Shown one piece after another: positions 31,466 through 50,047 of a stretch of 64,000 bases of DNA. The translations under genes were made by a program, and so were the position numbers. The notes under the pieces are model-generated. The model was not told the DNA's origin and searched no databases. It saw only the letters and a program-made list of their open reading frames with translations. The stretch is from Nitrospirota bacterium (lineage in GTDB: Bacteria > Nitrospirota > UBA9217): contig JAOUEV010000001.1 in assembly GCA_029858565.1 (NCBI GenBank), forward strand, positions 156,678 through 220,677, read 5' to 3'. Numbering within the stretch: position 1 is the first letter of the stretch; every line of letters begins with the position of its first letter.

Positions 31466-32707
31466 CTAGTTCCGGAACTTCTTGAAGATGACGGTGGCAT
31501 TGGTGCCGCCGAAGCCGAAGGAGTTCGACATGGCCACGTCGAACTCCTGCTTCCGGGCAGTGTTCGGCACGTAATCGAGGTCGCACTCCGGATCCGGGTT
31601 CTCGAGGTTGATCGTCGGAGGAAGGATCCCGTGCTCCATGGCGAGCAGGCTGATGACCGCCTCGACGCCGCCGGCCGCACCCAGGAGATGGCCGGTCATG
31701 GACTTGGTCGAACTGACCGGAACCTTCCGGGCGTGCTCGCCGAAGACCGACTTGATGGCCATGGTCTCAAGCTCGTCGCCGTACTTCGTTGACGTGCCGT
31801 GGGCGTTGATGTAGCCAACCTCGGACGGAGCGACGCCCGCGTCCTTGATCGCCATGGCCATGCACCGGGCCGCGCCTTCGCCGTTGGGCGCAGGCGAGGT
31901 GATGTGGTAGGCGTCGCCCGAGGCTCCGTAGCCGATGATCTCGGCGTAGATGCGGGCACCCCGTTTTTTCGCGAACTCCAGCTCCTCGAGGATGACGATC
32001 CCTGATCCCTCGCCCATGACGAATCCGTCGCGTTGGGAATCGAAGGGCCTGCTGGCGCGCTCGGGCTCGCTGTTCCGGGTGGAGAGCGCCTTCATGGCGT
32101 TGAACCCGCCGACCGCCAGGGGACAGATGGTCGCTTCCGTGCCGCCGGCGATCATGGCGTCGATCTCGCCCCGCTGGATCCATTTGAACGCGTCGCCGAT
32201 GGAATGGGTGCCCGTGGCGCATGCCGTGACCACGCTGATGTTCGGACCCTTGGCCCCGACGCGCATGGAGATATGTCCGGCCACCTCATTGACGATGACC
32301 ATGGGAATGAAGAACGGCGTGATCCTGCGGTAGCCCTTTTCCCGGTAGGCGTCATAGACCCGTTCGATGGCGGGAAGGCCGCCCATGCCCGCGCCTACCA
32401 TGACACCGATGCGATCGGCGTTCTCCGGGGAGATGATGAGCTTCGAATCTTCCATGGCCATCTGGCTGGCGGCGATGGCCAGATGGATGAAACGGTCCAT
32501 CTTTTTGATCTCTTTTGGCTCGATGTACTTGGCCGCGTCGAATCCCTTCACTTCTCCGGCGATCTGGGTGGGGATATCCTTGTCATCGAACTGGGTGATC
32601 GGGCCGATGCCGGACCTGCCCGCCGCTATGCCCTGCCACGAAGATTCCGTATCCAGACCGACGGGCGTGATCATGCCGACGCCGGTTACCACGACTCTGC
32701 GCTTCAA
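31466..32707 (-). CDS. fabF: 3-oxoacyl-ACP synthase II
   Basis: [25 protein letters not shown]; probable TTG start after GGAGG (alternative ATG at 32725). Confidence 0.96.
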
Positions 32708-32828
32708 AGGATGTACCTCCTGCATGCTTTAAAATCCGAAAAGCCAAAAAACCCGACCTCGTTCTGAGGGAGGGGGTCTTCTGGCTTTCGGAAAGTCCAG
32801 CAAAAAGAACGTAGTGCCGATGCTGCCT

Positions 32829-33065
32829 TTACTTCGCTTTTGCCTTGATGTAATCGATGGCGTTCTGGACCGTAGCGATCTTCTCCGCATCTTCGTCCGG
32901 GATCTCGACGCCGAACTCCTCTTCGAGGGCCATGACCAGCTCGACCGTATCGAGCGAGTCAGCGCCCAGGTCGTTCACGAACGATGCTTCGGGCTTCACG
33001 TCGCTCTCCGGCACGCCAAGCTGCTCGGAAATGATCTTTTTTACCTTGCCTTCAACTTCTGCCAT
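32829..33065 (-). CDS. acpP: Acyl carrier protein
   Basis: [20 protein letters not shown]. Confidence 0.97.
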
Positions 33066-33123
33066 TGTATCCTCCTCTGGAAACAGTCGATAATTCATCA
33101 GTCGTCAGTCGACCGGTTGGTCG

Positions 33124-33864
33124 TTACATGTACATGCCGCCGTTCACGTGGATCACCTGGCCGGTGATGTATGCCGCGGCCGGGGACGCCAGGAACCGAA
33201 CCGCATTCGCCACATCCTCGGACGATCCCAGACGGCCCAGCGGGATCTGCTTGGCCAGGTCCTGCCGCACCTGCTCGGAGAGCGCCTGGGTCATGGCCGT
33301 ATCGATGAAGCCCGGGGCAACGGCGTTGGCCGTCACGTTCCTGTTGGCGTATTCGCGCGCAATGGTCTTGGTCAGGCCGATCAGCCCGGCCTTGGACGCC
33401 ACATAGTTCGCCTGGCCAGCGTTGCCCATGGCGCCCACGATGGACGCGATGTTGATGATCGTGCCGCTGCGCTGCTTGGTCATGTGCTTGAGCGCGGCTT
33501 TGGTGCAGAGGAACGAGCCTTTCAGGTTGATCGAGAGCACCAGGTCCCAGTCCTCGTCCTTCATCCGCAGGATCAGTCCGTCGCGGGTAATGCCGGCATT
33601 GTTCACCAGAACATCGATCCTGCCGAACTTCTCCACCACCTGGTCGATCATTCCGGTCACTTCGGCCGAGGCGGCCACGTTTGCCTTGAGGGCCAGTGAC
33701 TTCCGGCCCTTTGCCTCGATGTCCGCCGCGGTCTTCTGGGCTGCTTCGAGGTTCACGTCGCAGATGGCCACATCGGCGCCGTCCGCGGCGAGGCCCAGCG
33801 CAATGTCCCGGCCTATGCCCTGTGCAGCGCCGGTGACGAGTGCTATTTTTCCGGAAAGCATCAT
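33124..33864 (-). CDS. fabG: 3-oxoacyl-ACP reductase
   Basis: TGAAQGIG, NNAGITRD, YVASK, VAPGFIDT, VNGGM. Confidence 0.96.
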   Translation of the reverse strand: MMLSGKIALVTGAAQGIGRDIALGLAADGADVAICDVNLEAAQKTAADIEAKGRKSLALKANVAASAEVTGMIDQVVEKFGRIDVLVNNAGITRDGLILRMKDEDWDLVLSINLKGSFLCTKAALKHMTKQRSGTIINIASIVGAMGNAGQANYVASKAGLIGLTKTIAREYANRNVTANAVAPGFIDTAMTQALSEQVRQDLAKQIPLGRLGSSEDVANAVRFLASPAAAYITGQVIHVNGGMYM

Positions 33865-33903
33865 GAACTTCTCCTCGGAAAAGACAAAAACCAGGAAATT
33901 ATA

Positions 33904-33930
33904 TCTCGCAGAGGCACGAAGCACGCAGAG
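33904..33930. repeat. CGCAGAG/CACGAAG 8-9-mer array
   Basis: tctcgcagag gcacgaa gcacgcagag. Confidence 0.5.
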
Positions 33931-33961
33931 AAAGCAGGACCCGGAATTAAGACTTCTCTGT

Positions 33962-34125
33962 ACTGCAGTGCGATGACATGCTCATGGCGAGCGGAGCAAA
34001 CTTTTTACGCCCGCAGCCTTGGCCGGTACCGTAGTATTTTCTCCGGTGATAACGATCTGGCCGGGGCTGTTGTAATTTGCAGGGGCAACTATACCATTTT
34101 TCGACACTTTGAGGCAAGTACTTTT
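33962..34125 (-). pseudogene. fabD: Degraded remnant of the native fabD
   Basis: Minus strand reads KSTCLKVSKNGIVAPANYNSPGQIVITGENTTVPAKAAG, then after a frameshift KKFAPLAMSMSSHCS. This matches the FabD motifs N-Y/F-N-S-P-G-Q and PL.VSVPSHC. It lies in the canonical slot before fabG. Confidence 0.85.
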
Positions 34126-34415
34126 CTAGGGAACCGGATCCGCGTGGGCTTGCGGGCTCAGGCGGCCCACCGTCGCTTTTGCACGCTCCCCCGGCATCTG
34201 GAGATGCGCGGTTATTGTCAAAATTAGACCGCAAAATCAGCCGGTTGTGCCGATAATTGTATTGATAAGTTCTCGTGCCCGTGCTATTTTTCTTCCATAG
34301 CTTCACGCAGGAATCTTTTCGCTGAAGGATCATGCGCTTTCACTGGATCGCTGGTTCTCGTGGGAGCGATCGTAGCGCAGAAATCGAGTCGTTTGTTCAA
34401 CCTGGGGGGGCTTCT

Positions 34416-34925
34416 ATGATCATCAAAGAGCTGAACGGGCATACCCCGAAGTTCGGTAAGGATTGTTTCCTGGCCGAGAATGCTGTTGTTATCGGTGATG
34501 TGGTGATGGGGGACCAGTGCAGTGTCTGGTACAATGCCGTCATCCGGGGCGATGTTCACTTCATTCGTATAGGGGATAAAGTGAACATCCAGGACGGAGC
34601 AGTGGTGCACTGCACCTATCAGACATCGCCGACCACGATCGGCAATAACGTCTCTATCGGACACAATGCCATCGTTCATGGCTGCACGATCCACGATAAC
34701 GTTCTTGTGGGCATGGGGGCGATCGTCATGGATGATTGCGTGATAGAAAGCAATTCGATCATTGCCGCCGGTGCAGTCGTCACCCACGGGACACGGGTGG
34801 AGGCGGGATCGGTGTTCGCCGGGGTGCCGGCGAAAAAGATCAAGAACGTCAGTCAGGAGCAGATCGCCAACGAGATCGAAGGCCGGGCGGACAATTACGT
34901 AAAATATGCCGCCTGGTACAAATAG
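34416..34925 (+). CDS. Gamma carbonic anhydrase family hexapeptide-repeat protein
   Basis: VIGDV, IRGD, NIQDGAVVH, IGHNAIVHGC, GVPAK. Confidence 0.9.
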   Translation: MIIKELNGHTPKFGKDCFLAENAVVIGDVVMGDQCSVWYNAVIRGDVHFIRIGDKVNIQDGAVVHCTYQTSPTTIGNNVSIGHNAIVHGCTIHDNVLVGMGAIVMDDCVIESNSIIAAGAVVTHGTRVEAGSVFAGVPAKKIKNVSQEQIANEIEGRADNYVKYAAWYK

Positions 34926-35091
34926 CCTTTCCCGCCCCGCATCCTTCCGAAAAGTTACATCAAGACCGATGGAACCACGGGTCCCGACTTTGTCGTGACA
35001 CACAGATGGAGACAAGGCTTTCCGTTCTTGATTCTATCTGTGTGTGGCGAAGCCACCAGTGGTTACAGCGGTTTGGTTCCGGCTTTTCAGG

Positions 35092-37101
35092 TCACGTCGT
35101 GAACGTGATGAGGACCTCATCGGTTTCCACCGCTTTGCCGACCGTCGCAGCCACCTCTTCCACGATCCCTTCGCAGGGCGAGGACACCCCGCTTTCCATT
35201 TTCATGGATTCGATGACCACCAGGTCCTGGCCGCGGTAGACGCGATCCCCTTTTTTGACCAGGATATTGACCACCATGCCGGGAAGGGGGGAGAGCAGCA
35301 TGTTCTCGGTGGAGCCTTTGGCTTCCTTCGGCATGTACTGGGCCAGCTCCCACTCTCCGGGCGTGTAGACCTCGAAGATGCGGGAATTGCCGCAATAGGC
35401 CGCCCAGATGAAGTTCTGCCGGTACTGGAGCCTGAAGTAGTGGTTCACGCTGTTGATCGACAGCTTCAATATGCGCCGGTAGAACTCGAACGCCGGCGTG
35501 ACTATGTTGTATTCCGTGCCGTTCACTTTGCAGTGCCAGTCCGGTGAGGCAAGCTCTCCTTCCAGTTCAACCTGAAAGATGTCGTTGTTGCCTTTGACCA
35601 CATAGCGGTGCAGGTGGTCCGGTTTGTGCGAGAGGCCGACCTTTGCCGCCATGGGCTTGAGGGATTCCCGGACCAGGTTCTTGCGGTTGTGATAGACGAT
35701 GGTCGCGGCGATGACCATGGCTGCGAGCTGTTCCATCGGCGGCTCGGCCTTGGCCGCGCCCTCCTCGAAATGCTGATCGATGAACCCGGTCGAGAGGTCG
35801 CCCTTGATGAAGGAGGGATGGTTCAGGATGGAGTTCGCGAAGTTCACGTTCGTGGTCACGCCTTCGATATGGTATCGGTTCAGCGCATTGATCAGGGAGG
35901 TCCGCGCCTGCTCCCGCGTCTCGCCCCAGCTGATCACTTTGGAGAGCAGTGAATCGTAGTAGACGCTGACGAAGCTGCCGGCCTCCACGCCGCTGTCGAG
36001 TCTGACGTTCCTGCCCTTGAGGTTCGAGTACCGGGTGATCAGTCCCGTCGAGGGAAGGAAGTTCCGCGACGAATCCTCGGCGCAGATCCTGGCCTCGATG
36101 GACCAGCCCTTGATCGAAACGTCCTTCTGCTTGATCGGCAGGGGCTCGCCTGATGCGACCTTGAGCTGCAGCTCCACGAGGTCGAGGCCCGTGACCATCT
36201 CGGTCACCGGGTGCTCCACCTGGAGCCGCGTGTTCATCTCCATGAAGAAGAAGTTCCTGTTGCCGTCCATGATGAATTCCACGGTGCCTGCGTTGGAGTA
36301 CCCCGCCTCGCGGGCCAATGCGCAGGCCAGCTCGCCCATGCGGGCCCTGAGCGCCTCGTCGACGGCAAGGGAAGGGGCTTCCTCGATCACCTTCTGGTAA
36401 CGCCGCTGGATCGAGCACTCCCGCTCTCCGAGATACAGTGCGTTCCCCTGCTTGTCGGCGATGATCTGGATCTCGATATGGCGGGGGGTGCTGATGAACC
36501 GCTCTAGGAATATCCGGTTGTCACCGAATGCCTTGCGGGTCTCCTCCTGTGCGGACTGGAGCGCGGATTCAAGTTCATGAGGCCCGGCGACCATACGCAT
36601 GCCCCGTCCGCCGCCTCCGGCAGCCGGCTTGAGCAGCACGGGATATCCGATCTCGGCGGCAAGCGCCCGTATCTCGTCGAGGTCGACGATGGGCAGGTTG
36701 TGGCCAACCACCACCGGCACCCCGGCCTTCATTGCGATGTTCTTGGCAGAAATCTTGTCTCCCAGAGCGGAGATCACCTCCGCCGAGGGCCCGATGAAGG
36801 TCAAGCCCGCGTTGGCCACGGCGGCGGCGAACTTCGAGTTCTCCGACAGGAATCCGTAGCCCGGGTGAACAGCCTGGGCGCCTGTTTCGAGCGCGGCGGT
36901 GACGATCTTTTCGTGCACCAGATAGGAGGACGTTGACGGCGCCGGACCTATGTGAACGGCCTCGTCGGCCTCCCGCACATGGAGCGAACGCGCGTCGGCG
37001 TCGGAGTAGACCGCCACGGTCTTGACCTTCAGCTTCCTGCAGGTCTTGATGATGCGGATCGCGATCTCACCACGGTTTGCTATAAGGATCTTGTCGAACA
37101 T
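35092..37101 (-). CDS. pccA: Propionyl/acyl-CoA carboxylase alpha (biotin carboxylase plus BCCP)
   Basis: ANRGEIA, HPGYGFLSEN, GGGGRGMR, EMNTRLQVEHPVTE, ESMKM biotin site. Confidence 0.9.
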   Translation of the reverse strand: MFDKILIANRGEIAIRIIKTCRKLKVKTVAVYSDADARSLHVREADEAVHIGPAPSTSSYLVHEKIVTAALETGAQAVHPGYGFLSENSKFAAAVANAGLTFIGPSAEVISALGDKISAKNIAMKAGVPVVVGHNLPIVDLDEIRALAAEIGYPVLLKPAAGGGGRGMRMVAGPHELESALQSAQEETRKAFGDNRIFLERFISTPRHIEIQIIADKQGNALYLGERECSIQRRYQKVIEEAPSLAVDEALRARMGELACALAREAGYSNAGTVEFIMDGNRNFFFMEMNTRLQVEHPVTEMVTGLDLVELQLKVASGEPLPIKQKDVSIKGWSIEARICAEDSSRNFLPSTGLITRYSNLKGRNVRLDSGVEAGSFVSVYYDSLLSKVISWGETREQARTSLINALNRYHIEGVTTNVNFANSILNHPSFIKGDLSTGFIDQHFEEGAAKAEPPMEQLAAMVIAATIVYHNRKNLVRESLKPMAAKVGLSHKPDHLHRYVVKGNNDIFQVELEGELASPDWHCKVNGTEYNIVTPAFEFYRRILKLSINSVNHYFRLQYRQNFIWAAYCGNSRIFEVYTPGEWELAQYMPKEAKGSTENMLLSPLPGMVVNILVKKGDRVYRGQDLVVIESMKMESGVSSPCEGIVEEVAATVGKAVETDEVLITFTT

Positions 37102-37123
37102 AGCGGCTCCTTTTTTTAGAAGA

Positions 37124-38677
37124 TCACAACGGAATATTCCCGTGCTTCCGCTGCGGCCGGTTCGTCCGTTTGTTCTCCAGGAACTGGAGGCTGCGGATCA
37201 GCCGGTGACGCGTTTCACGGGGGCTGATGACGTCGTCGATGAACCCGCGCTTTGCAGCCATGAAGGGATTGGCGTAGGCCTGCCGGTATTCTTCCGTTTT
37301 CCGGGCGAGCATCTCTTCGGGATTGGCGGCCTCGTCGATCTCCTTGCGGTAGATGATCTGCGCGGCGCCTTTGGGCCCGAGCACGGCGATCTCCGCCGCG
37401 GGCCAGGCAAGGTTCACGTCGCAGCCGATGTGCTTGGAGTTCATGACCACGTAGGCGCCGCCGTAGGCTTTCCGGATGATGACCGTGATCCGCGGCACCG
37501 TGGCTTCCGAGAAGGCATAGAGCAGCTTCGCGCCGTGCCGGATGATGCCGCCGTGCTCCTGCACCGGACCGGGCATGAACCCCGGGACGTCCTCGAGGCA
37601 GACGAGCGGGATATTGAAAGCGTCGCAGAACCGGACGAAGCGGGCGGCCTTTTCCGAGGCCTGGACGTCAAGGACGCCGGCGAGCACCGCGGGCTGGTTG
37701 GCGATGAGGCCGATGGTCTGGCCGCCGAGACGGCCGAATCCCACGATGATGTTCCGCGCGAAGTGGGGGTGGATCTCCAAAAACTCGGCCCCGTCCAGGA
37801 TGCTGGTGATGAGGATCTTCATGTCATAGGTCTGGTTCGGGTTCGCCGGGACCAGGTAATCCAGGGCTGGATCGGTGCGCTCGATCGGGTCCCGCAGGTC
37901 GAGGATCGGCGCCTGCTGGCGGTTGTTCGAAGGCAGGTAATTGATCAGACGCCGCACCTCGCGCAGGCAGAGGATGTCGTTGGGAAAGGCGAAATGGGCC
38001 ACGCCGCTCTTCTTGCTGTGCACCATGGCCCCGCCCAGGTCTTCCGCCGTGATGTCCTGGTGGGTGACGGTCTTCACGACGTTCGGCCCCGTGACGAACA
38101 TGTAGGAGGTGTGCTCGACCATGAAGGTGAAGTCCGTGATGGCCGGGCTGTAGACCGCGCCGCCGGCGCAGGGGCCCATGACGCAGGATATCTGCGGCAC
38201 TACCCCGCTTGCCTGCACATTGCGGTGGAATATCTCGCCGTAGGCAGCCAGGGATTCGACGCCTTCCTGGATGCGCGCGCCGCCTGAATCGTTCAGACCG
38301 ATGATCGGCGCGCCGACCCGGACAGCATGGTCCATGACCTTGCAGATCTTCTGGGAATGGGCCTCGCCGAGAGCGCCGCCCATGATGGTGAAGTCCTGGC
38401 TGAAGACGAACACCTCGCGTCCGTCGATGGTACCGTGGCCGGTGATCACGCCGTCGCCGGGAAACTCACCGACGCCGCTCGAGAGTCCCGCCCTGCCGGT
38501 CATCAGCAGATCGAACTCCTCGAACGAGCCTTCGTCGAGCAGCAGATCGATGCGCTCCCGCGCGGTGAGTTTGCCTTTCTTGTGCTGCGCGTCGATCCTC
38601 TTTGCGCCGCCGCCAAGAAGAGCTTCCTCTTTCATGGATTCAAGCTTTATCAGATTGTCCTGTCCGGGCTGCTGCAT
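37124..38677 (-). CDS. pccB: Propionyl-CoA carboxylase beta (carboxyltransferase)
   Basis: [41 protein letters not shown]. Confidence 0.92.
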
Positions 38678-38734
38678 CGAATTACCTCCCTGGAAAAGGT
38701 GCTTTGTAAGGAACGCAATGACCGGACGGAGCGT

Positions 38735-39724
38735 TTATTTTCCGTTCCTGGTCTGCAAAAAGGCAAGCAGGCTGTCTGCCGCGGCGGCCGGCGACGTCTT
38801 CTTTTCTTCCACGTCCCTTCGTAACCGCGGAAGGGTTTCCCGAACATGCGGGCTGGCGTAGAACCATTGCCGCAATCCGTCATCAAGCAGGAAATTCATC
38901 CAGTCGAGGTCCTGGGCCTTTCTCTTTTCCGCCAGATCGCCGCTCTCCGTCAATTTGTCGCGATGGTCCAGGATGGTTTTCCAGATCGCATCGATCCCCT
39001 TGCCTTCCCTGGCGCTGCAGGTAAGGACCGGCGGGCGCCAATTCGGGCTGGCGGGCATGAGCATGTTCAAGGCCGACTGATACTCCTTCTGAGCGCTCTC
39101 GGCCCGCACCAGGTTGTCGCCGTCTGCCTTGTTGATGACAACGGCGTCGGCCACTTCGAGTACGCCTTTTTTCATGCCCTGCAGCTCGTCACCTGCTCCG
39201 GCGATCATCAGTACCAGGAAAAAATCGACCATGGAGGCGACGGTTGTCTCCGATTGCCCGACACCCATCGTCTCGATGATCACCACATCATAACCCGCGG
39301 CCTCGCACACGAGCAGGGTCTCCCGGGTCCTTCTGCCGACGCCGCCGAGCGTTCCCCCTGAAGGGGAGGGGCGGATAAAGGCGTTGGGATCGATTGCCAG
39401 CTTTTCCATGCGGGTCTTGTCGCCCAGGATACTGCCGCCGCTGCGGCTACTGCTCGGGTCGATGGCCAGGACGGCAACACGGTGCCCCTGGGCTGTGAGC
39501 ATGGTTCCGAACCGTTCGATGAAGGTGCTCTTGCCCGCGCCGGGAACTCCGGTGATGCCGACGCGGATGCTGCGGCCGGTATGCGGAAGGAGCCGGTCAA
39601 CGATGGTCCGGGCGAGCTCCTGATGGGCCGGAAGCGTGCTCTCGATGAGCGTGATGGTCTTGGCGAGCATCAGGCTGTCGCGGTTCAGTACGCCTGTTAC
39701 GTAGTGTTGGGGGTCCTGGATCAT
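38735..39724 (-). CDS. meaB: Methylmalonyl-CoA mutase-associated GTPase
   Basis: [13 protein letters not shown]...[15 protein letters not shown]. Confidence 0.95.
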
Positions 39725-41868
39725 ATTCTTCGAAGATATTTCTCTTCCAGCAGCGCAAGCGTTCTATCGGCCGACTCCGGGATCGGCGTCCCTGGCCCGA
39801 ACACAGCCTTGACCCCGGCCTTGTACAGGAAATCATAGTCCCTGGGAGGGATGACGCCGCCGGCGACAACGAGTATCTCTCCGCCGCCGATCCGTTTCAG
39901 CTCTTCGATCAGGGCGGGAATGAGCAGCTTGTGCCCGGCCGCAAGGGACGATGCGCCGACGACATGGACGTCGTTCTCGATGGCCATCTTCGCCGCTTCT
40001 TCAGGGCTCTGGAACATGGGGCTGATGTCCACATCGAAGCCGAGGTCGGCATAGGCGCTGGCTATTACTTTAAAACCCCGGTCATGGCCGTCCTGGCCCA
40101 TCTTGGTGACCAGGATGCGCGGCCTGCGGCCCTGCTTTTCCAGGAACGCCGTTGTCCGCCGGCGCAGCGCTGTGACCGCATTATTGTCGCCGCTGTATCC
40201 CGACGCATAGGCGCCGGAGATGCAGCGGGTCGTGGCCACGAAGCGGCCGAACACCGATTCCATGGCATCGGAGATCTCGCCCAGCGTGGCCCGGGCCCGG
40301 ACCGCGGGCAGTGCGGCCTCCAGCAGGTTGCCGCCATTCTTCGCCACGCTGGTCAGGTCTGCCAAGGCTTTTTCGACGGCCTTCTTGTCGCGGCTGGCCT
40401 TGATCTCTTTAAGGCGGCTGATCTGCTCGTCGCGAACGGTCGCCGGCACTTCCCGGACCTCGAAATCGATGGTCTCGTTGGCAAGCTTGTATTTGTTTAC
40501 GCCCACGATCACGTCGAGGCCCTGATCGACCCGTGCCTGCTTCCGTGCCGCCGACTCCTCGATGCGCAGTTTCGGCATGCCGCTCTCGATGGCCTTGGCC
40601 ATTCCGCCGAGCTTCTCGATCTCGTCGAATATTTTCTGGGCTTCACTGACGATGCTGCTGGTCAGTGATTCGAGATAGTACGAGCCGCCGAGGGGATCGA
40701 TGACATGACAGATCTCCGACTCCTCCTGGATGATGAGCTGGGTGTTGCGGGCGATGCGGCTGGAGAGGTCCGTCGGCAGGCCGATGGCCTCGTCAAATGA
40801 GTTCGTATGGAGGGACTGGGTGCCGCCGAGCGCGGCGGTCATGGCCTCGAGCGTGGTCCGGATGATGTTGTTGTAGGGGTCCTGCTCGGTGAGGCTCCAC
40901 CCCGATGTCTGGCAGTGGGTGCGGAGCATGGAGGACTTGGGGTTCCTGGGATTGAACTGGCTCATGAGCCGGTGCCAGAGGAACCTTGCCGCACGGAGCA
41001 TGGCAATGTCCATGAAGAAGTTCATGCCGATACCGAAGAAGAACGAGAGCCGCGGAGCAAAGGTATCCACATCCATGCCGCTCCTGAGCGCCGCCCGTAC
41101 GTACTCGACGCCGTCGGCAAGGGTGAAAGCCGTTTGCAGGACGCTGTTGGCGCCTGCTTCCATCATGTGGTAGCCGCTGATGCTGATCGTGTTGTACTTG
41201 GGCATCTCCCTGGAGCAATAGGCGATGATGTCCGCGACAATGCGCATTGACGGGGCAGGCGGGTAGATGTAGGTGTTCCGGGTGAGATACTCCTTGAGGA
41301 TGTCGTTCTGGATCGTGCCTTCGAGCTTGTCGCGGCTGACGCCCTGTTCCTCGGCGGCGATGATGTACATGGCGAGGATGGGAATGACCGCGCCGTTCAT
41401 GGTCATCGATACGGACATTCGGTCGAGCGGGATTCCGTTGAACAGGATCTTCATGTCCTCGACGGAATCGATTGCAACGCCGGCTTTGCCCACATCGCCC
41501 ACGACGCGCGGATGGTCGGAATCATACCCCCGGTGGGTCGCAAGATCGAAGGCAACGGACAGGCCTTTCTGGCCGGAGGCCAGGGCTGTATGGAAAAAGG
41601 CGTTCGATTCCTTTGCTGTCGAGAAACCGGCATACTGGCGGATGGTCCACGGCCGCCCCGTATACATGGTGGCCATGGGGCCCCGGACGTACGGAGCCAG
41701 GCCGGGGAGGGTGTTGACCGATTCCATGCCCTCCAGGTCCTCGGCAGTATAGAGCGGTTTGACGGTGATACCTTCCGGAGTTGTCCAGGAAAGCGTGTCC
41801 ACCGACTTTCCCTTCATCTCCTTTTCGGCGGTCTCTTTCCATTTTGGCAGATGCGGATGGTGTGCCAT
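39721..41868 (-). CDS. scpA: Methylmalonyl-CoA mutase (B12-dependent)
   Basis: [33 protein letters not shown]. Confidence 0.96.
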
Positions 41869-41905
41869 GGGTTACCCCTTGATAAAACGATAAAAAAACT
41901 TGTCT

Positions 41906-41988
41906 CTCACGAAGCCACGAAGTCACGAAGAAATGCCTTCGAGACAATATTCAGGTTTCCCTTTGTGGTCTTTGTGACTTCGTGTGAG
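41906..41988. repeat. Inverted CACGAAG octamer-period arrays
   Basis: cacgaag x3 ... ctttgtg, ctttgtg, cttcgtg. Confidence 0.8.
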
Positions 41989-42058
41989 GAACGAATTTTA
42001 CGAATCTATCACTCCTTGGCCGAATGGTATTTCATGCCTGTAAACGCGAATAAGACTG

Positions 42059-42460
42059 TCAACGCTCGCAGAGCTCGACCAGGACCCCTCCGGTGAACTT
42101 GGGGTGCAGGAAGGCGATCTTGGCGCCGCCCGCACCGGTTCGGGGTTTTTCGTCGATGAGCTGAATGCCTTTTTCCTTGAGCTCTTTCAGGGCCTCTTCG
42201 ATGTTCTCCACTCGGAAGGCGACATGCTGGAACCCGGGGCCCTTCTTTTCGATGAACTTTGCCACCGGCCCGTCGGGCGAGGTCGACTCGAGAAGCTCCA
42301 CCTCGCTGTCGCCGACGGGAAAAAAGGCTGTGGTCACTTTCTGTGCTTCCACCGTTTCCGAGCCTTCGAACTTCAGGCCGAGCACGTCGGACCAGAAGGA
42401 TTTTCCCTCGGTTATATTGTTGACAGCTATGCCGAGGTGGTCGATCTTGAGAATTTTCAT
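42059..42460 (-). CDS. mce: Methylmalonyl-CoA epimerase
   Basis: DHLGIAV, ELLE, HVAFRV, FLHPK...GVLVELCE. Confidence 0.95.
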
Positions 42461-42478
42461 TGCGTGCCTCCCGTGAGA

Positions 42479-43348
42479 TCAAAAAACTTTGGCGCAGAGA
42501 TCGCCGAACGTGCCGAGGTCCTCGCAGACATGGATGCCAGCTTCCTTCATGACCGCGATCTTTGACTGTGCCGTGCCGCTGTTCCCGCTGACGATCGCCC
42601 CTGCATGTCCCATGCGTCTGCCCGGGGGAGCGCTTAATCCTGCGACGAAACCGACCACGGGCTTGGTCACATTTGCCTTGATAAAGGCGGCAGCCTCTTC
42701 CTCTGCGGTACCGCCGATCTCGCCTACCATGACGATGCCCTTGGTCTCCTTGTCCTCCTGGAAGGCCTTGAGACAGTCGATGAAGTTCGTGCCGTTCACG
42801 GGATCGCCGCCGATGCCGACGCAGGTTGTCTGGCCAATGCCCTTCGAGGTCAGCTGATGCACCACCTCGTAGGTGAGGGTGCCGGAGCGTGACACAACGC
42901 CAATGGGGCCGCCGGGCTTATGGATGAAGCCGGGCATGATGCCGATCTTGCACCGGCCCGGCGTGATGATGCCCGGGCAGTTCGGTCCGATGAGCCGGGT
43001 CTTTTTCCCGGACAGAAGGTTCTTGATGCGCAGCATGTCGAGCACCGGAATGCCTTCGGTGATCGCGACAACGAGATCGATCTCCGCGTCGATCGCTTCC
43101 TTGATCGCTTGCGCGGCAAAGGCCGGAGGCACGAAGATCATGCTGCAGTTCGCTCCGGTTGCCTGCACAGCTTCCCGGACCGTATTGAATACCGGCACGG
43201 CGTCCATCATCTGCCCGCCCTTGCCGGGGGTCACGCCGGCCACGACCTGGGTGCCGTATTCGATGCACTGCCGTGTATGGAACTGGCCTTCCTTGCCGGT
43301 GATGCCCTGGACAAGCAGTTTTGTCTCATTATTTACGAAAATGGACAT
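42479..43348 (-). CDS. sucD: Succinyl-CoA synthetase alpha
   Basis: [27 protein letters not shown]. Confidence 0.96.
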
Positions 43349-43403
43349 GGTCTTCACTCTCACTAAAACCTGGATAAACCGGAGGCATATGATCAAAGGC
43401 GTC

Positions 43404-43487
43404 TCGCGCAAAGACGCCAAGACGCAAAGGAAAGCTAAGACGGAGCCTGTTGTTTGTCTTTCTTGGCGCCTTTGCGGCTTTGCGCGA
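43404..43487. repeat. Inverted CGCAAAG octamer arrays between sucC and sucD
   Basis: tcgcgcaaag acgccaag acgcaaag ... cttggcgc ctttgcgg ctttgcgcga. Confidence 0.85.
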
Positions 43488-43540
43488 AAATGTTCTTGCC
43501 GTTTGAAGTGGATTTTGATCCCTTGGTAACTATCATATAT

Positions 43541-44704
43541 TCACGCCCTGGCGATGGCCGCGATCTTTCCGGCGGCATCATGCAGGCTTTCGGCAGTGAT
43601 CAGGTTCAGCCCCGAGGCGGCCAGGATCTCCCTGCCTTTGTCCACGTTCGTTCCCATCATCCTGATCACCACAGGAACTTTAATGCCCGTCTTCCGGGCG
43701 GCCTTGACAACTCCCTCGGCCAGCACGTCGCACCGGAGGATCCCGCCGAAGATGTTGATCAGGATGCCCTTGACATTGGGGTCGCTCAGGATGATGCGAA
43801 AGCCGTTCTCGACCATCTCCTCGTTCGCACCGCCGCCAACGTCGAGGAAGTTCGCAGGCTCGGCGCCGGCGGCCTTGATGAGGTCCATGGTGGCCATGGC
43901 AAGGCCCGCGCCGTTCACCATGTTCCCGATGGTGCCGTGGAGGTTGATGTAGTTGAGGTTGTACTTCGAGGCTTCCACTTCCTTGGGATCCTCTTCATCG
44001 AGGTCCCGGTACTTCAGGAGATCCTTCTGCCGGAACAGGGCATTGTCGTCGATCTCCATCTTCGCGTCCAGCGCGATCAGGGTCTCCCGGTTGGTGATCA
44101 CGAGCGGATTGATCTCAAGCAACGAGCAGTCGGTCTTGATGAAAAGGCCGTACAGGTTCTCGACCAGCGTGGTGAACGCTACGGCAAGGGGACCGGCAAG
44201 GTCGAGACGCGCGGCGATCTCCCGGGATTGGCCAGGCTCGATCCCGGTAAGCGGATTGATCATGAGCTTGATTATCTTTTCGGGGTGCTGGGCAGCGACC
44301 TCTTCGATGTTCATGCCCCCGGCCCGGCTGGCAATGATCATGATCTTCGCAGTGGAACGGTCGGGCAGGATGGAGAAATAGAGCTCATGGGCGATATCAA
44401 GGCCTTGCTCGACCAGGAGCTTTCCGACCTTTTTCCCCTGAGGTCCTGTCTGGGGGGTTACGAGCGGTTTGCCCAGAATGGCTGCCGCAGTGCTTCGGAC
44501 CTCATCGATTGTCTTTGTGAGCTTGACGCCGCCGCCTTTGCCGCGGCCGCCGGCATGGATCTGCGCCTTGACCACCACGGGGAATCCGCCGAGCTTTGCC
44601 GCCGCTGCGCAGGCTTCGTCGGGGGTCGCAGCGATGTATCCTTCGGGCACAGGAATATGATGGTTCCGGAAAACTTCTTTGGCCTGATATTCGTGGATCT
44701 TCAT
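43541..44704 (-). CDS. sucC: Succinyl-CoA synthetase beta
   Basis: HEYQAK, KAQIHAGGRGKGGGV, EINPL, NGAGLAMATMD, NIFGGI. Confidence 0.96.
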   Translation of the reverse strand: MKIHEYQAKEVFRNHHIPVPEGYIAATPDEACAAAAKLGGFPVVVKAQIHAGGRGKGGGVKLTKTIDEVRSTAAAILGKPLVTPQTGPQGKKVGKLLVEQGLDIAHELYFSILPDRSTAKIMIIASRAGGMNIEEVAAQHPEKIIKLMINPLTGIEPGQSREIAARLDLAGPLAVAFTTLVENLYGLFIKTDCSLLEINPLVITNRETLIALDAKMEIDDNALFRQKDLLKYRDLDEEDPKEVEASKYNLNYINLHGTIGNMVNGAGLAMATMDLIKAAGAEPANFLDVGGGANEEMVENGFRIILSDPNVKGILINIFGGILRCDVLAEGVVKAARKTGIKVPVVIRMMGTNVDKGREILAASGLNLITAESLHDAAGKIAAIARA

Positions 44705-44725
44705 GGGACCGCTTTCTTGATGTCG

Positions 44726-45568
44726 CTATTCGATCTGGCGTGCAAGGCCGGCAAGAACGGTCCCCGGGCCGACCTCGATGAACGTGTCAGCGCCTTGACC
44801 ACGCAGGCTTTTGACCGTCTCGACCCACCGCACACTGCTGGTGATCTGTTTGACGAGGTTCGATGCGACAGCATCATCCGTGTACGGCTGAGCGCTGCAG
44901 TTGGCGATGCAGGGGATCTTCAGTTTGTTGAAGCTGAATCCCTTCAGGAATGTCTGGAACTCGTCCGCAGCCGGCTTCATATAGCGGCTGTGAAAAGCGC
45001 CGCTGACTGGGAGAATGACCGCGCGCCGGGCCCCTTTGTCCTTGAGCCGGGGAGCAAATGCTTCGATGTCAGCCTTGGGACCGGAAATTACCGTCTGGCC
45101 CGGGGAATTGAAATTGGCGACATCAATACTTCCGGCCCCCAACTCGGCCAGGGCCGACGCAACGGCATCGCCCGTCATGCCCAGGATAGCTGCCATGCCG
45201 CCGCCGGTGGCCGCGTTCATCAGTGCGCCGCGCTTCTGGACCAGCTTGAGGCCGACGCCAAAATCGAATGCACCCGCGGCATACAACGCGGCATATTCGC
45301 CCAGGCTGTGGCCGATCACGAAATCCGGCCTGATCTTCTCATCCTCGACCTTCGCCAGATAGCTGAGGCTATCGACGACATACAGCGCGGGCTGGGTGTA
45401 ATCGGTACGCTTGAGCCTGTCGTCAGGATCGGTGAGGCAGAGTTCCTTGATCGAATAGCCGAGGATCGCGTCTGCTTCAGCGACCAGGTCGGGATATCGA
45501 TCGAAGAGCCCTGATCCCATCCCCACGGATTGGGAGCCCTGCCCGGGGAACATAAACACTAGTGCCAT
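44726..45568 (-). CDS. fabD: Malonyl-CoA:ACP transacylase, PksC/trans-AT-like
   Basis: FPGQGSQ, ILGYSIKELCL, TQPALYVV, GHSLGEY, NFNSPGQ, VSGAFHS, EVGPG. Confidence 0.9.
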   Translation of the reverse strand: MALVFMFPGQGSQSVGMGSGLFDRYPDLVAEADAILGYSIKELCLTDPDDRLKRTDYTQPALYVVDSLSYLAKVEDEKIRPDFVIGHSLGEYAALYAAGAFDFGVGLKLVQKRGALMNAATGGGMAAILGMTGDAVASALAELGAGSIDVANFNSPGQTVISGPKADIEAFAPRLKDKGARRAVILPVSGAFHSRYMKPAADEFQTFLKGFSFNKLKIPCIANCSAQPYTDDAVASNLVKQITSSVRWVETVKSLRGQGADTFIEVGPGTVLAGLARQIE

Positions 45569-45630
45569 GAACTACCTCCGGATGTTATTGAATGAGCCGC
45601 ATTACATGATGAAGTCGAAAAAACGATTTT

Positions 45631-45710
45631 CACCACGGAGACACCGAGGATACTGAGACAAATCGATAGATCTCAAATCGCTTTTCTCCGTGTCTCCGTG
45701 CCTCAGCGGT
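45631..45710. repeat. Inverted CACGGAG 8-9-mer arrays between prpE and fabD
   Basis: caccacggag acaccgag gatactgag ... ctccgtgt ctccgtgc ctcagcggt. Confidence 0.8.
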
Positions 45711-45750
45711 AGACCTAGCATTCTTACGAATCCATGAGTAACCGTTCCTC

Positions 45751-47646
45751 CTACTTCTTCCCGTACCCGATGCCCTTGATGGCCTCCTCGATCTCCGGGA
45801 GGATCGCCGGGTCGTCGATGGTCGAGGGCATGGTGTAGGACTCGCCGTCGGCGATCTTGCGCATGGTCCCGCGCAGAATCTTGCCGGACCGGGTCTTGGG
45901 CAGCCGCTTCACCACCGCCGTCTCCTTGTAGCAGGCGATGGGGCCGATCTGGTCGCGGATGAGCAGCGAGAGTTCTTTCTGGATCTCGGCAGCAGAGCGG
46001 TTCGCGCCGGACTTCAGCACGCAAAGACCGACCGGGACCTGGCCCTTGAGACCGTCGTGCACGCCGATGACCGCGCATTCGGCCACGTCCTTGTGCGTGG
46101 CAACGACCTCCTCCATCTCGCCCGTGGAAAGCCGGTGGCCTGCCACATTGATCACGTCGTCCACGCGGCCCATGATGTAGACATACCCGTCCTTGTCGAC
46201 GTGGCCGCCGTCGGCGGTGAAGTAGTAGCCCGGGAAGGGGTTGATGTAGGATTCCTGGAATCTCTGGTCAGCGTTCCAGAGCGTTGGAAGCGTGCCGGGA
46301 GGCAGGGGGAGTTTTACGGTCACAAGCCCCTCGGTCTCCGCCGGGACCTCCTTGCCGTTCGTGTCGAGGATCCGCACGTCGAAGCCCGGCACGGGCTTGG
46401 TGGACGAGCCCGGCTTCACGGGGAACTGCTCTATGCCCATGGAGTTGGCGGTGATGGGCCAGCCGGTCTCGGTCTGCCACCAGTGGTCGATAACCGGCTT
46501 CTTCAAAAGGTTGCTTGCCCAGTGATAGGTGTCCGGATCCAGCCGTTCGCCGGCCAGGAAGAGGGCGCTGAACTTCGAAAGGTCGTACTTCTTCACGAAC
46601 TCGCCGTTGGGATCCTCTTTCTTGATGGCCCGGAAGGCCGTCGGCGCGGTGAACAGCACCTTCACGTTGTGCTGGGATATGACGCGCCAGAAGGCGCCGG
46701 CGTCGGGCGTACCGATGGGCTTGCCCTCGTACACGATGGTGGTGCAGCCTGTCAGGAGCGGCGCGTAGACGATGTAGGAGTGGCCGACCACCCAGCCCAC
46801 GTCCGAGGCTGCCCAGAAAACCTCGCCTGGCTTTACGTTGTAGATGTTCTCGACGCTCCAGCGCAGAGCCACGGCGTGTCCGCCGTTGTCCCGCACGATG
46901 CCCTTGGGCTTGCCCGTGGTGCCGGAGGTGTAGAGGATATAGAGGGGATCGGTTGCCTTGACCGGCACGCACTCGGCGGGCTTCGCCGTGGCCACAGCTT
47001 CGTTCCAGTCCACGTCTCGTCCCGGAGTGAGCGCGGCCTTCACGAGATCGCGCTGGAATATGACGCATTTCTCGGGCTTGTGGTGCGACTCCGCGATGGC
47101 ACGGTCTATCAGGGGCTTGTATTCGAGGACCTTGGCGCCTTCCTTGGCGCCCGAGGCGGTGACGATGACCTTGGGCTTCGCGTCGTCGATGCGGATTGCA
47201 AGCTCGTGGGGCGCGAAGCCTCCGAACACCACTGAGTGGGTTGCGCCGAGGCGGGCGCAGGCCAGCATGGCGATGACGGCCTGCGGGATCATGGGCATGT
47301 AGATGATGACCGTCGTGCCCTTCTCCACGCCGAGGCCGCGGAGGGCTCCGGCGAAGAGGGCAACCTCGTCGCGAAGCTCCCGGTAAGTGTATTTCCTGAT
47401 GGTGTTCGTGACCGGGCTGTCGTAAATGAGCGCCGTCTGGTCGGCCCGGCCGCTGTCCACGTGGCGGTCAAGAGCATTGTGGCAGGTGTTCAGCTCTGCG
47501 CCGGAGAACCAGCGGTAGAAAGGTTTGTTCGAATCGTCAAGGACCTTGTTCCACTTCCTCGACCACGTTATCGTTTCCGCCGCGTCGCCCCAGAACCCCT
47601 CCGGGTCCTTGATGCTCCTCTGAAATAGATCGTTGTATTTCCCCAT
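45751..47646 (-). CDS. prpE: Propionyl-CoA synthetase (AMP-forming)
   Basis: YTSGTTGKPKG, SDVGWVVGHSY, DHWWQTETG, GRVDD, LPKTRSGKILR. Confidence 0.9.
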   Translation of the reverse strand: MGKYNDLFQRSIKDPEGFWGDAAETITWSRKWNKVLDDSNKPFYRWFSGAELNTCHNALDRHVDSGRADQTALIYDSPVTNTIRKYTYRELRDEVALFAGALRGLGVEKGTTVIIYMPMIPQAVIAMLACARLGATHSVVFGGFAPHELAIRIDDAKPKVIVTASGAKEGAKVLEYKPLIDRAIAESHHKPEKCVIFQRDLVKAALTPGRDVDWNEAVATAKPAECVPVKATDPLYILYTSGTTGKPKGIVRDNGGHAVALRWSVENIYNVKPGEVFWAASDVGWVVGHSYIVYAPLLTGCTTIVYEGKPIGTPDAGAFWRVISQHNVKVLFTAPTAFRAIKKEDPNGEFVKKYDLSKFSALFLAGERLDPDTYHWASNLLKKPVIDHWWQTETGWPITANSMGIEQFPVKPGSSTKPVPGFDVRILDTNGKEVPAETEGLVTVKLPLPPGTLPTLWNADQRFQESYINPFPGYYFTADGGHVDKDGYVYIMGRVDDVINVAGHRLSTGEMEEVVATHKDVAECAVIGVHDGLKGQVPVGLCVLKSGANRSAAEIQKELSLLIRDQIGPIACYKETAVVKRLPKTRSGKILRGTMRKIADGESYTMPSTIDDPAILPEIEEAIKGIGYGKK

Positions 47647-47790
47647 GAAACCCTCCTCTGAAGACAGGGTATTGAATACCTTTTCAGCATCCTCCGTACG
47701 GAGCGAAGGCCCTGCCTCCAGGAAAACGGATCAACGGCAGCGATGCAGCGCTACCGTCAAGCGCGCGGCGGACCACTGATGATACGCTGA

Positions 47791-47820
47791 ACTATAATAG
47801 CCTTTAAGCGTTTCTGTCAA
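47791..47820 (-). promoter_or_regulatory. sigma70 promoter of the prpE...pccA block
   Basis: TTGACA, 18 nt, TATAGT. Confidence 0.6.
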
Positions 47821-48051
47821 GCGGAATAAAGGCGTCTCAAGCTGGGATTTTGCTTTGTCTGAAACAGAAATGAGGTGATCGAAGATATCTCGTCGTGAGG
47901 AGGGTAGGCAGGGAAAGCGGGTTTCTTTCCTTTGCTCCGAGAGGCATTACCGGAAATGCCTCTGGTGCGGTTCCTGCAAGTTTCGTCAGGCGTCAGGCGC
48001 GGGAAACGAGTCTGTTGCCGTACGCTCCTACGCCTGACGTTTGTCGGGTCT

Positions 48052-49242
48052 TCAACCTCGAACTTCCCTGAACTTCTTGATCATCTCCGTCAGGACCTCG
48101 GTGACATCGCCCACGATGCCGTATGTCGCAACGTTGAAGATCGGCGCGTCGGGGTCCTTGTTGATGGCCACGATCGTTTCCGACGACTGCATGCCGGCAA
48201 CGTGCTGGATCGCGCCAGAGATGCCGCAGGCGATGTACAGCTTGGGGCAGACCGTCTTGCCGGTCTGCCCCACCTGGTGGGAGTAGGGGATCCACCCCTC
48301 GTCAACGGCCCCGCGGGTTGCGGCGACCGCGCCGCCCAGGACCTTGGCGAGTTCTTCAAGCAAGAGGAAGTTCTTCCGGCTTCCCAGCCCCCGTCCGCCT
48401 GCCACGATGATGTCCGCCTCGCAGATGTTCACGGTCTCGGTCAGCTCATCGACGGTCTTGAGCACCTTCGTGCGGACCGGACCGGAAGGCGTGTATTTCA
48501 CGTCGATGATCTCGCCCTTGCGGGAGTCGTCCCGCTGCGCAGGCTTCATGACCTTGTGGCGCACCGTGGCCATCTGGGGCCGGTGATTGGGCGTCACGAT
48601 CGTGGCCATGATGTTGCCGCCGAAGGCCGGACGGGTCTGGTGCAGATGGCCGGTGGCGTCATCGATATCAAGCATGGTGCAGTCCGCAGTGAGGCCCGCG
48701 TAGAGGGTCGACGCAACCTTGGGGAAGAAGGAGCGGCCGATGGCAGTCGCGCCAGCAAGGATGATCTCGGGTTTGTGCTGCTGTGCAAGCGCAGTCAGGA
48801 CCGCTGCGTAGGAATCGTCATTAAAATGTTCCAGCGCCGGGTCATTGCAGACGTACACGGCGTCCGCGCCATGGGCGATAAGCTCCTGTGCCTTGCTGCT
48901 GATCCCGGACCCGACGAGCACGGCCGAGAGCTTTGCCTTTTTCTTGTCTGCAAGCTTCCTGCCTTCGCCCAGAAGCTCGATGGACACGCTCGCGATACTG
49001 CCTTTATGCTGTTCAGCAAACACCCATACGCCCTTGTAGGCTGACAGGTCCTTTGCCGGACCGGTCGCTTCGATGGTCTTCTCAATGGCCTGGAACTGGC
49101 ATGCCTCGACGCAGGCGCCGCACATGGTGCAGGCATCGGTGATGACGGCCTTGCCGTCCTTCATCTCGATAGCGCCGAAGGGGCAGGCGGAAACACAGGT
49201 TTCGCAGCCGGTGCAGATATCCGGTTTGACTTTCACGCTCAC
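48052..49242 (-). CDS. etfA: Electron transfer flavoprotein alpha with N-terminal 2[4Fe-4S] ferredoxin domain
   Basis: [12 protein letters not shown] and [11 protein letters not shown]; [27 protein letters not shown]. Confidence 0.95.
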
Positions 49243-49261: not shown

Positions 49262-50047
49262 CTAGATCAACGATTGTTCCTTGAGTTTTTTAGCAACTGC
49301 CGCCACCTGGTCGGCCACAGAGCCGGAGAGCATCTCGCGGCCCCCGCGGGGCGCAGGGGGGAAGATCCTGACGACCTGGGTCGGCGAGCCCTTGAGCCCG
49401 AGCTTGTTCTCGTCGGCGTTCACGTCCTTGGCGCTCCAGGCGGTCACCTTGAGGCTCTTGGCCTTCATCTTGCCCTTGAGCGAAGGGACGCGGGGCTGGT
49501 TGATCTCTTTCACCACCGTGATCAGGCAGGGGAGCGAGGTCTCGACGACGTCGTAGCCCTCGTCCATCATGCGCTCAACCACCATGGTGTCGTTCTCGAC
49601 CTTCTCGATCTTCCTTATATAGGCTATGAAGGGGATGCCGAGCATGTCCGCGGTCTCAGGACCCACCTGCGCGGTGTCTCCGTCAATGGCCTGCTTTCCC
49701 GCGATCACGAGGTCGTACTGGCCGATCTTCCGGATCCCCATGGAAAGGGCGTAGGAGGTCGCCCAGGTGTCTGCGCCGGCGAATGCCCGGTCCGACAGGA
49801 GCACCACGTCGTCCACGCCGAGCGAGACCGCTTCCTTGAGCGCTTCCGCGGCCTGGGGAGGCCCCATGGTAAGGGCCGTCACCTTGCCGCCGTGCTTCTC
49901 CCGCAAGCGGAGCGCTTCTTCGATGGCGAACATGTCAAAGGGGTTGATGATGCTCGGCACACCGTCGCGGATAAGGGTGTTGGTTTCCCGGTTGATCTTC
50001 ACTTCCGACGTGTCCGGGACCTGTTTGACCAGAACGATGATGTTCAT
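49262..50047 (-). CDS. etfB: Electron transfer flavoprotein beta
   Basis: KQVPD, INPFD, MGPPQA, FAGADTWATS, QAIDGDTAQVGP. Confidence 0.95.
   Translation of the reverse strand: MNIIVLVKQVPDTSEVKINRETNTLIRDGVPSIINPFDMFAIEEALRLREKHGGKVTALTMGPPQAAEALKEAVSLGVDDVVLLSDRAFAGADTWATSYALSMGIRKIGQYDLVIAGKQAIDGDTAQVGPETADMLGIPFIAYIRKIEKVENDTMVVERMMDEGYDVVETSLPCLITVVKEINQPRVPSLKGKMKAKSLKVTAWSAKDVNADENKLGLKGSPTQVVRIFPPAPRGGREMLSGSVADQVAAVAKKLKEQSLI

Follow-up and report, generated by a model that had tools for sequence, protein, structure and literature searches.

Introduction

According to a published review (PMC3896788), the fab cluster of Escherichia coli (plsX-fabH-fabD-fabG-acpP-fabF) contains internal promoters, one of which lies inside plsX, and has no promoter directly upstream of fabG, the mRNA of which is derived from longer transcripts. 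The Nitrospirota locus described here shares with that cluster a candidate promoter situated within upstream coding sequence, internal transcription starts being established for fab operons. It differs in that the candidate lies inside fabD, ~560-600 nt before fabG in relatives with an intact fabD, in that we infer it from conservation only, and in that it persists after the death of its host gene. The principle of a promoter embedded in a coding sequence has a precedent, although this particular site appears to have none.

Xenologous or paralogous gene displacement is the process by which a foreign homologue displaces an essential gene. The present case is like such a displacement in that the native copy has been lost and its role has passed to a distant homologue (~40% identity). 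It is unlike the usual displacement in that the newcomer arrived on the same DNA by which the native gene was disrupted; in a sister genome (G065), remnants of the latter can still be seen to the left and right of the insert. The incoming FabD resembles DisD and PksC, two trans-acting acyltransferases of trans-AT polyketide synthases (PKS), over its full length. Unlike these enzymes, it is encoded within a propionate/methylmalonyl-CoA cluster, is the sole FabD of its genome and passes the fabD equivalog model.

The remnant of the native gene (hereafter referred to as the fossil) is an ordinary kind of object, exhibiting the stops, frameshifts, deletions and lineage-dependent stages of decay of other bacterial pseudogene remnants. 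Unlike ordinary pseudogenes, it contains one sub-segment that resists decay in every lineage and coincides with an element whose synonymous sites were under constraint before the gene died. A non-exhaustive literature search returned, by title, no description of a pseudogene remnant kept as a promoter.

Results and Discussion

Identity of the sequence upstream of fabG

A preliminary description of this DNA proposed that the apparently empty gap between fabG and the gamma-carbonic-anhydrase-like gene contains a decayed fabD bearing an upstream stop, a short internal deletion and a one-base frameshift. We searched the window, i.e. the whole 64-kb stretch of DNA analysed here (genome G000), by tblastn with the canonical FabD proteins of the relatives G012, G001 and G002. 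All three queries matched the fossil significantly, with summed E values of 1.6e-14, 2.7e-14 and 1.7e-13, respectively, the G001 protein being 61% identical to the fossil over 49 residues, with a gap of five residues; the sole better match in the window was the intact fabD of the cassette (44732-45568). On the minus strand, the translation of positions 34125-34009 shows the FabD signatures V.PAN.NSPGQ.VI.G and AKAAG, and the ..PL..S..SHC signature is found at 34006-33962, one base out of frame. A TAG codon (34128-34126) lies immediately upstream of the first reading, and alignment of the DNA with the intact fabD of three relatives revealed the loss of 15 nt between 34035 and 34034 and of 1 nt between 34007 and 34006, the latter causing the frameshift. 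Weak similarity extends past 33962-34125, to ~34188 upstream (codon ~120) and to 33953 downstream. Codons 1 to ~119, which include the GHSLGE nucleophile region, are missing, as are codons ~205-310, in place of which the native fabD-fabG spacer comes next. The His region is represented only by the out-of-frame ..SHC.. remnant.

In a search of 18,950 NCBIfam models, the 39-residue piece of the fossil matched TIGR00128 (fabD) and no other model (E = 1.5e-4, profile positions 146-176 of 290), with a score of 21.3 bits that is far under the cut-off of 260.9 for full-length FabD membership. Pfam assigned no family to either piece of the fossil, and a whole-genome search with PF00698 also missed it. 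The gap sequence was compared by blastn with 40 relatives, 24 of which belong to the same family. The fossil stretch was found at 72-87% DNA identity in 23 of these 24 genomes, the remaining one (G021) having no more than part of a fabD, at the end of a contig. Many weak blastn matches to 33887-33933 were also found in the relatives, with no convincing further copies in this genome. The 128-aa ORF at 33947-34333 (minus strand) and the 84-aa ORF at 33973-34227 (plus strand) gave no match in Pfam and were taken as spurious; the annotation should be corrected accordingly for the former, which is not a gene.

A canonical-type fabD lies directly upstream of fabG in all 19 relative loci fetched (L003-L021), and longer stretches from G012, G001, G002 and G007 have the gene order etfB-etfA-fabD-fabG-acpP-fabF-rnc-...-purM-purN. 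The local order in the family is plsX-fabH-acd-etfB-etfA-[fabD]-fabG. The placement of fabD between fabH and fabG, as given in the preliminary description, therefore holds for its position before fabG and not for a direct neighbourhood with fabH, the place of which is taken by etfA in this family. The window keeps the same flanks, with plsX, fabH and an acyl-CoA dehydrogenase gene located upstream of etfB, but ~13.7 kb of foreign genes separate etfA from the fossil (Table 1). With the tblastn matches (E ~1e-14), the NCBIfam fabD match and synteny, the central claim of a decayed fabD was confirmed, and both the slot between etfA and fabG and the DNA homology with the fabD genes of relatives indicate descent from fabD. 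The stretch is almost certainly the decayed 3' remnant of the original housekeeping fabD of this lineage. That it could instead be a partial duplicate of the cassette fabD (44726-45568), or a chance FabD-like motif, is extremely improbable: fossil and cassette gene are both FabD-like and have the NSPGQ motif in common, but the fossil shows the protein and DNA identities given above to the canonical genes, to which the cassette FabD is only 37-41% identical at the protein level, and it occupies the exact fabD slot of the relatives. A derivation of the fossil from the cassette gene was rejected on the basis of DNA identity, protein identity and synteny.

Table 1. Coordinates of the features of the locus, as positions in the window.
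Feature	Position	Strand	Remarks
fabF (ketoacyl-ACP synthase II)	31466..32725	minus	
acpP (acyl carrier protein)	32829..33098	minus	True start probably ~10 codons inside this ORF
fabG (3-oxoacyl-ACP reductase)	33124..33864	minus	First gene downstream of the fossil; TIGR01830, 341.6 bits (cut-off 297.75)
fabD-fabG intergenic leader with fabG ribosome-binding site	33865..33945	minus	Partly aligns with the G001 fabD-fabG spacer
3' fossil of native canonical fabD	33953..34188	minus	Codons ~120-204 of 310; non-coding; tblastn, DNA alignment, NCBIfam
Best-kept core of the fossil, candidate sigma70-like promoter	34069..34128	minus	A-rich stretch, hexamers and first ~20 nt downstream
-10 of the core, TATAGT	34093-34088	minus	18-nt spacer after the -35; consensus scan
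TG of the core (extended -10)	34096-34095	minus	Consensus scan
-35 of the core, TTGCCT	34117-34112	minus	Consensus scan
Cassette	34189..47875	minus	~13.7 kb; both ends approximate
gamma-carbonic-anhydrase-like gene	34416-34925	plus	Cassette; divergent
pccA	35092-37101	minus	Cassette; propionyl-CoA carboxylase
pccB	37124-38677	minus	Cassette; propionyl-CoA carboxylase
meaB	38735-39724	minus	Cassette
Fused methylmalonyl-CoA mutase	39721-41868	minus	Cassette
sucD	42479-43420	minus	Cassette
sucC	43541-44704	minus	Cassette
Replacement FabD, DisD/PksC-like	44726..45568	minus	280 aa; TIGR00128, PF00698
Propionate/acetate-CoA ligase	45751-47646	minus	First gene of the cassette
Promoter-like site of the first cassette gene	47791..47820	minus	TTGACA, 18 nt, TATAGT
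Left junction, etfA stop to cassette	47876..48051	minus	No recognisable fabD 5' remnant
etfA, with ferredoxin domain	48052-49242	minus	Native upstream neighbour of fabD in the family
etfB	49262-50047	minus	Native upstream neighbour of fabD in the family

The replacement FabD

The FabD encoded by the cassette passes the TIGR00128 equivalog with 349.9 bits (cut-off 260.9), covering profile positions 3-286 of 290. Its best matches among solved structures are DisD (PDB 3SBM) with E = 2.2e-90 and PksC (PDB 5DZ6) with E = 2.7e-88, both full-length, and E. coli FabD (1MLA) comes well behind with E = 7.9e-55. The GQGSQ, GHSLGE and AFHS motifs are visible in its alignment with DisD. No other protein of the genome, which is estimated to be 100% complete, matches PF00698, and hence no AT-containing PKS module was detected. 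The same type of FabD occurs outside the family at ~20 other Nitrospirota loci, at 76-84% identity and directly after an etfB-etfA pair that is itself ~60% identical to that of the window. Since the DisD/PksC-like FabD is the only TIGR00128 match in two complete chromosomes from outside the family (G041 and G042), an enzyme of this type evidently can serve as sole FabD. The cassette FabD most likely serves fatty acid synthesis, and the loss of the essential fabD would have been tolerated because the protein both passes the equivalog cut-off and is the sole PF00698 match. The annotation thus needs a second correction, as the only FabD of this genome is a trans-AT-like enzyme located in a propionate cluster.

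Splitting and decay of fabD across the family

We carried out a census of FabD types in 64 Nitrospirota/Thermodesulfovibrionia metagenome-assembled genomes. The cassette-type FabD was found at an identity of at least 87% in six of them, namely G000 and G003 (genus g1), G019 (g17), G084 (g11), and G065 and G075 (g19). Canonical-type matches only were obtained for 54 genomes, and the remaining four, which are 65-90% complete, had no FabD match. In one relative, G014 (L011, G014:C8), the tblastn match to the canonical fabD is broken in two (residues 1-84 and 75-310), which reflects either a frameshift or an assembly error; this genome has no cassette-type FabD.

In G019 and G065 the cassette occupies the same slot as in the window. 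The least decayed pair of fossils surrounds the cassette of G065: its 5' fossil, on the etfA side, spans codons ~3-68 and contains a stop (69% identity over 197 nt by blastn, E = 1e-6 by tblastn), and its 3' fossil, on the fabG side, spans codons ~120-310 with a stop and frameshifts. The left side of the G019 cassette holds a 5' fossil of codons ~31-57, and on its right side codons 141-164 are fused to codons 229-310. As G065 and G019 thus hold 5' and 3' fossils around the cassette, it was inserted into the fabD reading frame, splitting the gene. The preliminary description had fabD decaying after an insertion; the decay was borne out, but the insertion itself fell inside the fabD reading frame. 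The halves of fabD have eroded differently in each lineage. In G003, ~codons 130-171 alone are left, adjoining pccA. No 5' remnant was found in the window, either by tblastn of the whole window (E <= 10) or by tblastn and blastn of 47620-48110.

The two other carriers have the cassette elsewhere. In G084, etfA is followed by fabD codons ~127-159 only and then by fabG. In G075, a single base is missing from an A-run around codon 170 of the canonical fabD (L166, G075:C1:971300-973700), which is 91% identical to that of its nearest relative before the break and 75% after it; the missing base could represent an early pseudogene or an assembly error.

A promoter-like core within the fossil

The part of the fossil that best matches the relatives (34128-34037) has a G+C content of 45% compared to 60% for the window. 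A consensus scan of 33700-34600 identified a single minus-strand site, which lies in the best-kept 60-nt core and matches 9 of the 12 consensus positions of the two hexamers (Table 1). The predicted transcription start would lie near 34081. The hexamer pattern alone is not significant, since two sites were counted in 900 nt against 0.7 +/- 1.0 in shuffles. In this genome, 33 of the 87 TATAGT hexamers located upstream of genes (up to 300 nt before a crude ORF) are paired with a TTG at 17-19 nt, compared to 34 of the 389 that lie inside crude ORFs (p = 2e-10). Closer to fabG there is another -10-like hexamer, TATAAT (33903-33898), which lacks a -35 partner and is not kept in G001.

We then aligned 37 intact fabD genes, 18 from L003-L021 without L011 and 19 from L149-L168 without L166; L011 was left out because the G014 gene is in two pieces. 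Codons 141-160, which correspond to the core, have a third-position entropy of 0.28 bits compared to a gene mean of 1.23 and to 0.99 bits for the next-lowest 20-codon window, a value that was reached in none of 20,000 permutations. Third positions are invariant in 10 of the 20 core codons versus 11 of 292 elsewhere, GC3 is 0.29 versus 0.67, and isoleucine is coded by ATA in 37 of 37 cases versus 99 of 728. The core also codes for the conserved FabD peptide ..NG.V.PAN.NSPGQ, and part of its nucleotide conservation is thus driven by the protein, but the synonymous signal exceeds that share and reveals a constraint independent of the protein code. Together with the atypical A/T-ending codons, this synonymous constraint indicates that the living fabD already bore an overlapping non-coding signal.

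Both hexamers, the TG and their spacing are kept in all five fossils (G000, G003, G019, G065 and G084), with the variants TTGCAT and TATATT in G019 and TTGCCA in G084, and the same geometry, within the 16-18 nt expected between sigma70 hexamers, is found in the 37 intact genes. Every fossil resembles the consensus more closely in the core than in its other parts (49/60 versus 106/186 identical positions in G000 and 54/59 versus 200/292 in G019), a contrast that is inflated because only inside the core is the consensus exact and hence a better stand-in for the ancestor. In G019 and G084, the deletions stop no more than a few codons 3' of the core. As the genome contains one copy of the core, we discarded the possibilities of a dispersed repeat and of an operator with several copies.

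Competing readings of the core and a proposed course of events

We favour the reading that the core is probably the promoter driving fabG-acpP-fabF. It is unlikely that the relic is instead purely neutral, devoid of function, with its core spared by chance, recency or the pattern of deletions. Pseudogene remnants do decay unevenly, and the fossils of G000, G003 and G065, i.e. three of the five, probably stem from one event, which leaves fewer independent retentions. Neutral decay is contradicted by the synonymous-site constraint and atypical A/T-ending codons seen in the same 60 nt of the 37 intact genes, and by G084, which lost both fabD flanks and retains little besides the core.

A cis-element other than a promoter, such as an operator for a regulator of lipid synthesis, a processing or stability site of the fabD-fabG RNA, or a recombination target of the cassette, is likewise improbable. 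Invariance reaches ~20 nt past the -10, beyond the needs of a minimal promoter, and the cassette-bearing fossils start at nearly one point, which could mark an integration site. However, selection would not conserve an attachment site in 54 genomes without the cassette, and in G065 fabD-derived sequence runs ~20 codons upstream of the core, so that the point of integration is not at its edge. A regulon operator would not be expected in a single copy, Rfam returned no family at E <= 1 in 33700-34500, and the RNA fold of 34030-34135 was no better than that of shuffled sequences (z = +1.54; 190 of 200 shuffles folded at least as well). The joint retention of -35, spacer and extended -10 in every fossil also speaks for a promoter rather than for these other elements.

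The following course of events can be proposed. The ~13.7-kb cassette landed within fabD and, by bringing its own malonyl-CoA:ACP transacylase, would have made the disruption of an essential gene survivable. The old fabD halves have since eroded by deletions and point changes, the 5' half being lost in this genome. If the core is indeed a promoter, this erosion would have been uneven, 34069-34128 being kept as a sigma70-type promoter under selection for transcription start. In relatives, the promoter within the intact fabD frame would give fabG-acpP-fabF its own transcription start. With fabD dead and the upstream operon severed by the cassette and its divergent gene, the relic would have become the main fabG-acpP-fabF promoter, with transcription proceeding from the predicted start through a ~215-nt leader into fabG-acpP-fabF.

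The locus is noteworthy in that an essential gene was displaced by a trans-AT-like FabD which the disruptive insert itself encodes, and in that every remnant of that gene contains a promoter-like core. It exemplifies how insertion into an essential gene is possible where the insert supplies a substitute, how regulatory signals inside coding sequence constrain synonymous sites, and how embedded signals can decide which pieces of a dead gene survive. This last point bears on genome reduction, on recoding projects and on the "intergenic" DNA of uncultivated bacteria. For the annotation, a third correction is that the likely promoter of the fab operon is concealed in apparent junk.

One event or several

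To trace the parentage of the fossils, each was compared with the intact canonical genes over the columns outside the core. The G000 fossil is nearest to the fabD of G001 (g1) and G012 (g10). The G065 fossil (511 columns) is nearest to G002 (70.3%), G001 (68.5%) and G012 (68.3%), and its identity to G069 of its own genus (58.7%) is among its lowest. The G084 remnant is nearest to genes of its own genus, g11, as judged from 51 columns only. One extra base just upstream of the -35 is seemingly common to the fossils of G000, G003 and G065, which are probably of one origin and hence do not represent independent retentions; the separate ones are G084 and perhaps G019. In a quick fabG tree, G000, G001, G003 and G002 group with g10 (support 98), and the fabG genes of G019 and G065 do not group with those of their congeners.

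Tentatively, these observations suggest one split event in a g1/g10-like lineage, later movement of the module to other genera, and a separate in-place loss in G084, a reading drawn from single short genes. It is in our judgement evenly balanced whether the intragenic promoter outlived fabD, kept by selection as the start site of fabG-acpP-fabF, in no fewer than two independent losses, that of the cassette-split lineage and that of G084 with its deletion of both fabD flanks, and whether the cassette-fossil-promoter module moved between Thermodesulfovibrionia genera.

Further features of the cassette and its flanks

No integrase or transposase was found among the ORFs of at least 150 aa in 34189-47875. 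The block at 47791-47875 (minus strand), which contains the promoter-like site of the cassette, is non-coding and conserved in G000, G019 and G065 (L039, L045). Among 41 genomes searched, the fused mutase occurs at an identity of at least 89% in G000, G003 and G019 only, and the G003 match (G003:C76:6155-8296) contains one TAA. Between the mutase gene and sucD, a stretch of ~600 nt (41869-42478) is devoid of ORFs of at least 150 aa. A further promoter-like site on the plus strand (34262-34290; TTGATA, 17 nt, TATTTT with TG) faces the gamma-carbonic-anhydrase-like gene and is divergent from the core of the fossil. G019 has ~5 kb of extra DNA between the latter gene and its fossil (L040 1-2800, L039 18000-20000), which includes the gene of another carboxyltransferase (57% identity to PccB) and a sequence resembling part of a biotin carrier.

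A second Nitrospirota/Thermodesulfovibrionia group (L046-L066) has an etfB-etfA pair, ~60% identical to that of the window, directly followed by a DisD/PksC-like FabD and then by (acs)-sucCD, a split methylmalonyl-CoA mutase, meaB and pccBA; its fabG-acpP genes are located elsewhere, without the core element. Since the cassette of the window differs from this cluster mainly in its fused mutase and MeaB, it looks like a mosaic.

An acyl-CoA dehydrogenase gene (50106-51263, minus strand) lies within the fatty-acid synthesis cluster, between fabH and fabD, and its best NCBIfam match is the acryloyl-CoA reductase AcrC, under the cut-off. It is followed by the EtfAB pair, the alpha subunit of which carries the ferredoxin domain. 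The dehydrogenase and EtfAB possibly have a role in lipid synthesis, e.g. in enoyl reduction. The order etfB-etfA-fabD is kept across the family, and the second Nitrospirota group has the same order with the other type of FabD.
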